Below, one piece after another: positions 56,342-58,078 of a stretch of DNA of 64,000 nt (positions are counted from its first letter, which is position 1; each line of letters opens with the position of its first letter). Made by a program: the position numbers and the translations under genes. The notes under the pieces are model-generated. The model had not been told where the DNA came from. It searched no databases and worked only from the letters and a program-made list of their open reading frames with translations. The stretch comes from a virus (taxonomy: Duplodnaviria > Caudoviricetes): IMG/VR virus record IMGVR_UViG_3300026442_000101. One strand, given 5' to 3'.

Positions 56342-56394
56342 GACGACCTCCGTTTATTCATTACATAGCCGTCATTGTTAAATGTATACGAACG

Positions 56395-56660
56395 GCATAA
56401 AGACCCGGCCGAAGCCGGGCATCTTGATCTTCATGTTGCCCGTCGTTGTACATGCGCATCCGGCTAGAGGCAGCGAACCGCCCGATAGGTTTCAGCTACA
56501 AGCATTGATAGGCGCGTTCAGCCTCAGGAAGAACGCTAAGGGGTGGCGTTGCCGCCATTGGGGTTCCATTCCTCAGGGAGCTGGACGAAACGGACGTCCT
56601 TACTGTGAGTTCAAGATCTAAATTGTGAAAGAGCTCAGAGAACAACTTGTGAGGGCATTC
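56395..56660 (-). ncRNA. Structured ncRNA candidate B (about 250 nt) with UUCG terminator hairpin
   Basis: Minus-strand GCAA and UUCG tetraloop hairpins; closing stem atcttga/tcaagat. Confidence 0.55.
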
Positions 56661-56698
56661 TCTACATAGTATATTGACATCATCCGTAAGTATTCACG

Positions 56699-56748
56699 CA
56701 AAAAAAAAAGAAAGTAGCACAGCCCGGCTTTCGCCGGGCTGTATGCTG
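56699..56748 (-). terminator. Terminator with CTTTCTTTTTTTTTT tail
   Basis: gca-cagcccggc-tttc-gccgggctg-tatgc. Confidence 0.85.
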
Positions 56749-57787: not shown

Positions 57788-57836
57788 GCGGCATATACCC
57801 CACCACCGGCGGAGCGACCGGTGGTGGGGATCTATG
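57788..57836 (-). terminator. Hairpin closing ncRNA candidate C
   Basis: ccccaccaccggc-ggagc-gaccggtggtgggg with gcata/tatg flanks. Confidence 0.75.
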
Positions 57837-57844
57837 TTGGTTCA

Positions 57845-58060
57845 CACTTGGGGCTGAGTGGTCACCCCACAGAGTTCGGCTTGTCCTCACGACGCTGAAC
57901 TCTGCAGGCTGTGCACTCTAGGCACTAGCTAGACTCCGACGGACCCGCGACCGTCGTAGCCTAAGGTCGGAGAGGACTCCCGACCACGGTGATCCAACGA
58001 TGGGAGTGTGCACACCGTTGGATTAAACTGAATCCATTCGCCCGAAATAATTCAGTCTAA
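57845..58060 (-). ncRNA. Six-hairpin ncRNA candidate C (strand tentative)
   Basis: Adjacent stems at 57849-57869, 57870-57904, 57919-57963, 57965-57985, 57992-58023 and 58027-58056. Confidence 0.55.
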
Positions 58061-58078
58061 CATATAATACATCACATG

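Follow-up and report, generated by a model that had tools for sequence, protein, structure and literature searches.

The window analyzed here is a 64-kb stretch of viral DNA (64,000 nucleotides). It carries genes for a major head protein, a polymerase, a DnaB-like helicase, and virion proteins of the phiKZ type. Even the closest of the named relatives are far removed from it: one protein is approximately 50% identical to its counterparts in Noxifer and DT01, and the helicase shows approximately 40% identity. Contigs that are near-identical to the window extend to 246-248 kb. The phiKZ-type proteins, the distance of the named relatives, and the size of these contigs together indicate that the source of the window is an uncultured chimallivirus-like (phiKZ-like) jumbo phage. 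The number of tRNA genes varies widely among four related genomes that we refer to as G001 to G004 (0, 2, 4, and 6).

The locus of interest is a 407-bp gap between genes for a 107-aa protein and a 131-aa protein, both encoded on the minus strand. Neither protein could be assigned to a family (Pfam included). Furthermore, the 107-aa protein, which lies upstream, gave no lead in Pfam, PHROG, or Atlas and was not found in G001, G002, or G003. An initial annotation of this gap, made from the sequence alone, proposed that it carries an independently transcribed, structured ncRNA on the minus strand. All of the stem arms listed in that annotation are present on this strand. The features that we assign to the locus are as follows, in the 5' to 3' direction of the RNA.

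56700-56743, minus strand: upstream intrinsic terminator (hairpin and U-tract) that ends the operon of the 107-aa gene and insulates the RNA gene
56662-56673, minus strand: late-type promoter and start, with TATG at 56668-56665 and a predicted +1 at the G of position 56665
56637-56663, minus strand: P0, an optional and variable 5' hairpin (AGAGAA/UUCUCU) that is absent in the L014/L044/L045 lineage
56623-56636, minus strand: M1, a 14-nt motif with the consensus GYUCWUUNACAA, predicted to be single-stranded, with 9 invariant bases
56611-56623, minus strand: 5' arm of a possible closing helix (pairing with 56431-56421), plausible in close relatives only
56572-56609, minus strand: core hairpin, composed of P2a (CUCA/UGAG), an N/CCC loop, an invariant AGU/GCU helix, an AA/A loop, and the variable P2b (GGACG/CGUCC)
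56544-56557, minus strand: P3, a hairpin with a GCAA loop here; a 4-5 bp stem is found in all homologues with variable loop and sequence
56514-56536, minus strand: P4, with a 6-bp stem, a 2x2 pyrimidine internal loop, a 2-bp stem, and a triloop
56438-56513, minus strand: P5, a variable 3' domain (approximately 40-100 nt) with a GCGG-UUCG-CUGC hairpin, showing compensatory and wobble changes among close relatives
56393-56420, minus strand: 3' hairpin followed by UUUAUGCCG, with the predicted 3' end at approximately 56393; found in all homologues with differing stems
56382-56621, plus strand: 79-aa shadow open reading frame, not a gene, with stops or frameshifts in L005 and L008

Predicted boundaries of the transcription unit

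The placement of the unit after a terminator, as first annotated, is borne out by the hairpin and T-run at 56743-56700, and a hairpin with a T-run precedes the start in every homologue described below. The TATG that had been pointed out before the first stem is likewise present. In phiKZ, late promoters carry TATG and initiate at its G (PMC4666361). The sequence CTATGTA, a motif enriched in non-coding DNA, is found at the start in 12/12 homologues, and this conservation together with the phiKZ rule places the predicted start at position 56665. At the other end, the terminal cccggc-UUCG-gccggg hairpin exists as described (56419-56404), but with the adjoining TTTATGCCG it constitutes the standard terminator used throughout the phage genome, and the tail motif occurs 16-30 times in the non-coding DNA of each related genome. 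From these boundaries, we infer an RNA of approximately 270 nt transcribed from the minus strand, from 56665 to approximately 56393. The 79-aa plus-strand frame, whose conservation would have argued for a protein-coding gene, is broken in two of the homologous loci, is absent from a collection of 15 billion proteins, and has no Pfam match.

Homologues and conserved architecture

At least 12 distinct homologous sequences were found in at least seven lineages, with lengths of 229-319 nt and identities of 47-95%. Five close variants (87-95% identical to the window) were reached via the flanking proteins, and the distant homologues are 47-57% identical to the window. A profile built from the five close variants recovered L015 with an E-value of 4e-15 and gave a weaker match in L014. 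Motif scans then yielded L019/L020/L028, L036, L044, and L045, and a scan that dispensed with the CCCUG end yielded L168. This last sequence was held out, being used neither to build the core model nor to derive the P2a register. Core model scores are 58-82 bits for lineages included in the model, 37.7 bits for the held-out L168, and no more than 23 bits for chance pattern matches, with one outlier at 31.8 bits (L027:4290-4345). This outlier is a perfect 7-bp AT-rich hairpin that fits the core pattern. It belongs to a bacterial contig, where it lies immediately ahead of a LysR-like gene in antisense orientation, and it was treated as a chance match. Search patterns based on the cctgagg stem or on the P4 motif specific to the window retrieved no homologues.

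The RNA is present as a single copy in 5/5 related genomes. No convincing match to the core model or pattern was observed in 14 cultured chimalliviruses (phiKZ and 13 others, a set that does not include 201phi2-1). The best score among them was 22.5 bits at phiKZ position 277767, where ribonucleotide reductase genes are separated by an AT-rich terminator gap. When the window and three distant homologues were compared by blastn with 50,697 phage records, the only matches were the size of a terminator. Likewise, the Rfam comparison that was originally suggested matched no family (Rfam 15, gathering and E-value thresholds), with terminator-hairpin fragments as the best hits at E-values of 0.66 or worse, and ARAGORN found nothing in the window. 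A search of the literature, whose coverage excluded most subscription papers, returned no description of this RNA. The structured RNA family is apparently undescribed and belongs to one jumbo-phage lineage.

Within the RNA gene, close relatives show a mosaic composition, as seen when L008, L009, L012, and L013 are compared with the window and L005. For example, L012 combines a 5' half of the L008 type with a 3' half of the window type, and the 3' half of L008 is of the L005 type. Domains of the gene appear to have been exchanged by recombination among these phages.

From 5' to 3', the RNA consists of the optional P0, M1, a variable linker, the core hairpin, P3, P4, P5, an A-rich linker, and the terminator. 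A total of 25 bases are invariant, and all of these reside in M1 (9 bases) and the core hairpin (16 bases), the latter containing the motifs M2 (56608-56600) and M3 (56582-56574). This conserved core, composed of a 14-nt motif predicted to be single-stranded and a hairpin made irregular by bulged CCC and AA, was missed in the initial annotation. M1 forms no stable local hairpin (pair probability of 0.00-0.03 in predicted folds) and lies 7-44 nt from the start, depending on the lineage. The predicted folds favor the AGU/GCU helix, leave M1 unpaired, and pair M2 with M3. Comparison of the homologues reveals that the string of hairpins (core, P3, P4, and P5) drifts in sequence while its pairing is kept, whereas 25 bases in the three short motifs are unchanged. 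Hairpins equivalent to P4 are found in other lineages, and a P5-equivalent domain with a different sequence is found in L014 and L044.

Several of the originally listed stems need to be reassigned. The ggacg/cgtcc stem (56599-56583) corresponds to P2b, and the tggcg-GCAA-cgcca (56557-56544) and ggcgg-UUCG-ctgcc (56482-56469, with one G.U pair) hairpins are also found on the minus strand. However, the stable tetraloops that had been taken as a sign of selection at the RNA level vary among homologues. The internal UUCG loop is replaced by UGCG or UCCG in relatives with 87-89% identity, and the GNRA loop is GCAA, GAAA, GAGA, or GGAA in some homologues and UAAC, UUCA, CUCA, or 3-9 nt in others. 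Both arms of the proposed cctgaggaa/ttcctgagg stem exist (56577-56569 with 56530-56522), but this stem is interrupted by a G.G mismatch at its center and does not persist among homologues. Rather, the two arms are parts of two different helices, both of which covary, and P4 makes use of bases from this stem. The atcttga/tcaagat closing stem (56617-56611 with 56427-56421) is also present and shows one U.G to C-G change in L008, but such a long-range helix is no better than shuffles in distant homologues.

Whole-segment folding gives a z score of -0.87, and 23/100 shuffled sequences fold equally well; therefore, the hairpins alone provide no evidence for a structured RNA. What goes beyond chance, judging from the aligned sequences, is the conservation and covariation across lineages. 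As the initial annotation had recommended examining, covariation is indeed observed in the P2a, P2b, and P4 helices. Three of the four P2a pairs are changed on both sides (plain sequence alignment; 4/500 shuffles), and in L168 UCA/UGA is replaced by AGA/UCU. P2b has a covariation score of 0.32 (model-fitted alignment; 0/500 shuffles), and a G-C base pair is kept under many different stems. For P4, 100% of the cells are paired, and two double changes are present in L168. An alternative core register that pairs CAG with CUG was rejected because it is broken in L005 and L168. The inner AGU/GCU helix, an M1:M3 pseudoknot, and an M1 hairpin consist of invariant bases, and covariation therefore cannot judge them.

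Among close relatives, 10/12 ungapped variant pair types still pair, compared to 41% for random partners. This and the other pair statistics given here are optimistic because the helices were chosen with the homologues in view. All seven one-sided changes in these relatives involve G.U pairs. Such changes preserve pairing only on the minus strand, which fits an RNA made from that strand. Pair counts fail in the L014/L044 and L036/L015 comparisons because MAFFT offsets the 3' arms, and helix equivalence in these cases rests on individual folds. The start and terminator found in 12/12 homologues, the covarying helices, and the changing neighbors all fit the independently transcribed, structured minus-strand ncRNA that was first proposed, and the locus is very probably a real gene for a conserved, structured, non-coding RNA.

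Two explanations would do without a separate functional RNA of this kind. The first is that the conserved sequence acts at the DNA level, for example, as an extended late promoter or as an origin- or packaging-type site. In phiKZ, where late promoters depend on undefined downstream sequence, TATG is required but does not suffice (PMC4666361); M2 resembles the CAGTNA portion of a promoter-like motif, and there is one copy per genome. This promoter-like motif, CAGTNA(T/C)ACAT, is enriched in non-coding DNA, with 3-8 copies per genome in the window, G001, G003, and G004, and shares CAGTNA with M2. However, a spacing between M1 and the start that ranges over 7-44 nt by lineage, covariation and strand-specific G.U changes over 270 nt, and the bounding of the unit by a start and a terminator make a DNA element very improbable.

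The second explanation is that the RNA is a cis-acting leader, attenuator, or riboswitch of the downstream gene. The 131-aa gene is located 3' of the RNA and is separated from it by a terminator-like hairpin with a short U-run, and small RNAs derived from 5' UTRs exist in phiKZ and 201phi2-1 (PMC10914365, PMC11512511). Regardless, all homologue loci lie between a GNAT gene and a DUF7941 virion gene (or adjoin one of these where the locus is short), and within this constant neighborhood the genes directly adjoining the RNA differ between lineages. No neighboring protein gene accompanies the RNA across all lineages compared. Across lineages, the gene downstream is either unrelated or missing, and the RNA is followed by another non-coding unit in L014 and L045, which argues against a leader. 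Furthermore, no conserved antiterminator was seen, the terminator is the generic one, and there is no constant position upstream of functionally related genes. We therefore give the leader reading only a very slight chance of being correct.

The 131-aa gene has homologues at G001:208659, G002:192439, and G003:177028, where it does not adjoin the RNA. In the window, a 9-bp hairpin (56375-56340, minus strand) covers the ribosome-binding site and start codon of this gene. The hairpin carries a compensatory change in L008 and is kept in L005, and it was not seen in the same form in distant lineages. This structure may silence read-through transcripts.

Candidate functions for the invariant core

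The best reading of these data, which we hold tentatively and at somewhat less than even odds, is that the RNA is a late protein-binding scaffold or decoy. Late in infection, the non-virion RNA polymerase of the phage would initiate at the G of TATG and stop at the standard hairpin terminator. The single-stranded M1 and the non-canonical core loops (bulged CCC and AA/A) could then pack into one compact surface that would be recognized by a phage or host protein, with P3 to P5 as a scaffold. Accordingly constituted, the RNA would act as a ribonucleoprotein scaffold or protein decoy and not as an mRNA leader or base-pairing guide. Protein binding is suggested on both negative and structural grounds: there is no leader arrangement, no conserved pairing target in related phage genomes or Escherichia coli rRNA, and no reverse transcriptase or Ro60 partner in the related genomes examined, and the conserved bases extend beyond what local pairing demands. 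For instance, a retron, DGR, or DRT ncRNA was rejected because PF00078 is absent from five related genomes (four of them near-complete), although very divergent reverse transcriptases could escape this search. Similarly, a bacterial Y RNA (YrlA/Yrn) was rejected because PF05731 (Ro60/TROVE) is absent from the five related genomes and no Rfam match was obtained. The invariant core would fit a ribozyme or an aptamer equally well.

A recognition surface is preferred over a guide because the invariant bases fall in loops and in a strand that local pairing does not explain, and because no conserved complementary target was found in four related phage genomes or in E. coli rRNA. A base-pairing small RNA or pocket guide would be consistent with invariant short strands on either side of a variable hairpin, such that M2 and M3 flank this hairpin as in H/ACA or bridge RNAs, and CUCC resembles an anti-Shine-Dalgarno sequence. 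However, predicted folds have M2 paired with M3, four related phage genomes offer no conserved non-coding target, and complementarity to the rRNA of E. coli, which may not be the host, is at the level of chance. A guide function is consequently improbable. We assign a similarly low likelihood to a decoy built from part of a tRNA, in which the CUUU(C/U)AC of M1 would mimic the anticodon loop of tRNA-Glu or tRNA-Lys and thereby titrate anticodon nucleases or modifying enzymes of the host. The E. coli tRNA-Glu loop has exactly the sequence CUUUCAC, and the base that varies falls at the third anticodon position. Weighing against this idea, 8% of shuffled sequences also yield a 7-nt match, the required stem has a pair probability of 0.00-0.03 and a C.A mismatch, L019 has an A at the U33 position, and ARAGORN finds nothing.

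Another possibility is a new class of catalytic RNA (self-cleaving or processing) in which M1 docks into the core, for example, through a pseudoknot between GCU and the AGC of M3. The 25 invariant bases in loops are compatible with an active site, and the M1:M3 pairing can form in all homologues, with the sole change (C to U) occurring opposite a G. Yet no double change is seen in this pairing, 500/500 shuffles reach an equally high score, there is no match to an Rfam ribozyme, and the hammerhead core is not kept. We thus regard catalysis as quite unlikely. The hammerhead comparison arose because L014 carries GUA, a hairpin, and then CUGAUGA, as in type III hammerheads. This candidate was rejected because CUGANGA is not maintained in other lineages (CUG is followed by AGGA, AUUU, AUAA, UUGA, or CUGA, and L168 lacks the G) and stem I is not contiguous. 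Moreover, GAAA-CUG(U/G), which would supply the GAAA and the stem III partner of a CAG-UA site, was present in no homologue searched.

Two further resemblances were considered and set aside. The acceptor end of tmRNA and tRNA-Ala shares with the core a hairpin of 5 bp with a 7-nt loop that is followed by CAGCUCC. However, the present RNA has no CCA, no GGGGCU 5' strand, no T-loop consensus, and no acceptor stem with G3.U70; in addition, its hairpin size varies and ARAGORN is negative. The core U-A-A-G opposite C-A-G also matches the footprint of the U.A pair and AA platform in the 11-nt GAAA tetraloop receptor (PMC2275092). Only these features are kept, whereas a G-C pair takes the place of the closing G.U (a substitution with a cost of 4.33 kcal/mol in the receptor; PMC2275092), the A-minor pair is G-C where the receptor has C-G, and there is no conserved GAAA loop.

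Related phage RNAs and neighboring units

ROOL, GOLLD, and similar RNAs are stand-alone, conserved, multi-hairpin non-coding RNAs of phages that are orphans in function. Compared to these, the present RNA is much smaller (229-319 nt), has no Rfam match, and has a pseudoknot only as a candidate. The nearest known kind is the uncharacterized small RNAs of phiKZ and 201phi2-1, together with orphan structured phage RNAs. Like 201phi2-1 sRNA005 and phiKZ sRNAgp182, it is a short, structured, start-to-terminator RNA from a nucleus-forming jumbo phage (PMC11512511, PMC10914365). Many of the phiKZ and 201phi2-1 small RNAs are derived from 5' UTRs, and sRNA005 is tied to one tail gene (PMC11512511, PMC10914365), unlike the present RNA, whose neighbors change between lineages.

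A function is known for few of the RNAs that lytic phages make (PMC10884466). The RNA described here has outlasted the replacement of neighboring protein genes in a nucleus-forming phage lineage that has no cultured member among the relatives examined. Its invariant core is small (approximately 65 nt) and so offers an inexpensive and immediate starting point for cleavage assays, probing, structural studies, and pull-downs. If the RNA proves to bind a host defense protein or to be catalytic, it would represent a new RNA function in the biology of jumbo phages; should it serve only as a scaffold, it would still be a new RNA family for Rfam. A bolder proposal, which we consider rather unlikely, is that the 25-base core forms the catalytic center of a new ribozyme class, or else serves as the recognition surface in a new RNA-protein machine of the phage, one that acts together with two nearby units, RNAs A and C, in or around the phage nucleus.

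Several observations concern these neighboring units, relative to which the present RNA is designated RNA B. An RNA C-like unit, with a TTATATG-type start and a terminator at its end, is located at 57800-58065 of the window (minus strand), and such a unit follows the GNAT gene in every lineage inspected (L005, L014, L015, L019, L036, and L044). The 5' hairpin of RNA A (55235-55185 of the window, minus strand) has a stretch that may resemble the 5' region of the HDV ribozyme. In L019/L020 and L044, no RNA A is found at its usual position. At the corresponding place, L015 carries a gene-free, GC-rich unit of approximately 400 nt (L015:9530-9935) with an ATATG start and a terminator, and this unit has no blast match to RNA A. 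A second gene-free, hairpin-rich unit of approximately 250 nt directly follows RNA B at L014:9690-9945 and L045:1065-1320 and ends in the standard terminator; it is near-identical in the two contigs and likewise has no blast match to RNA A. Overall, RNA B and RNA C co-occur more tightly than does RNA A.
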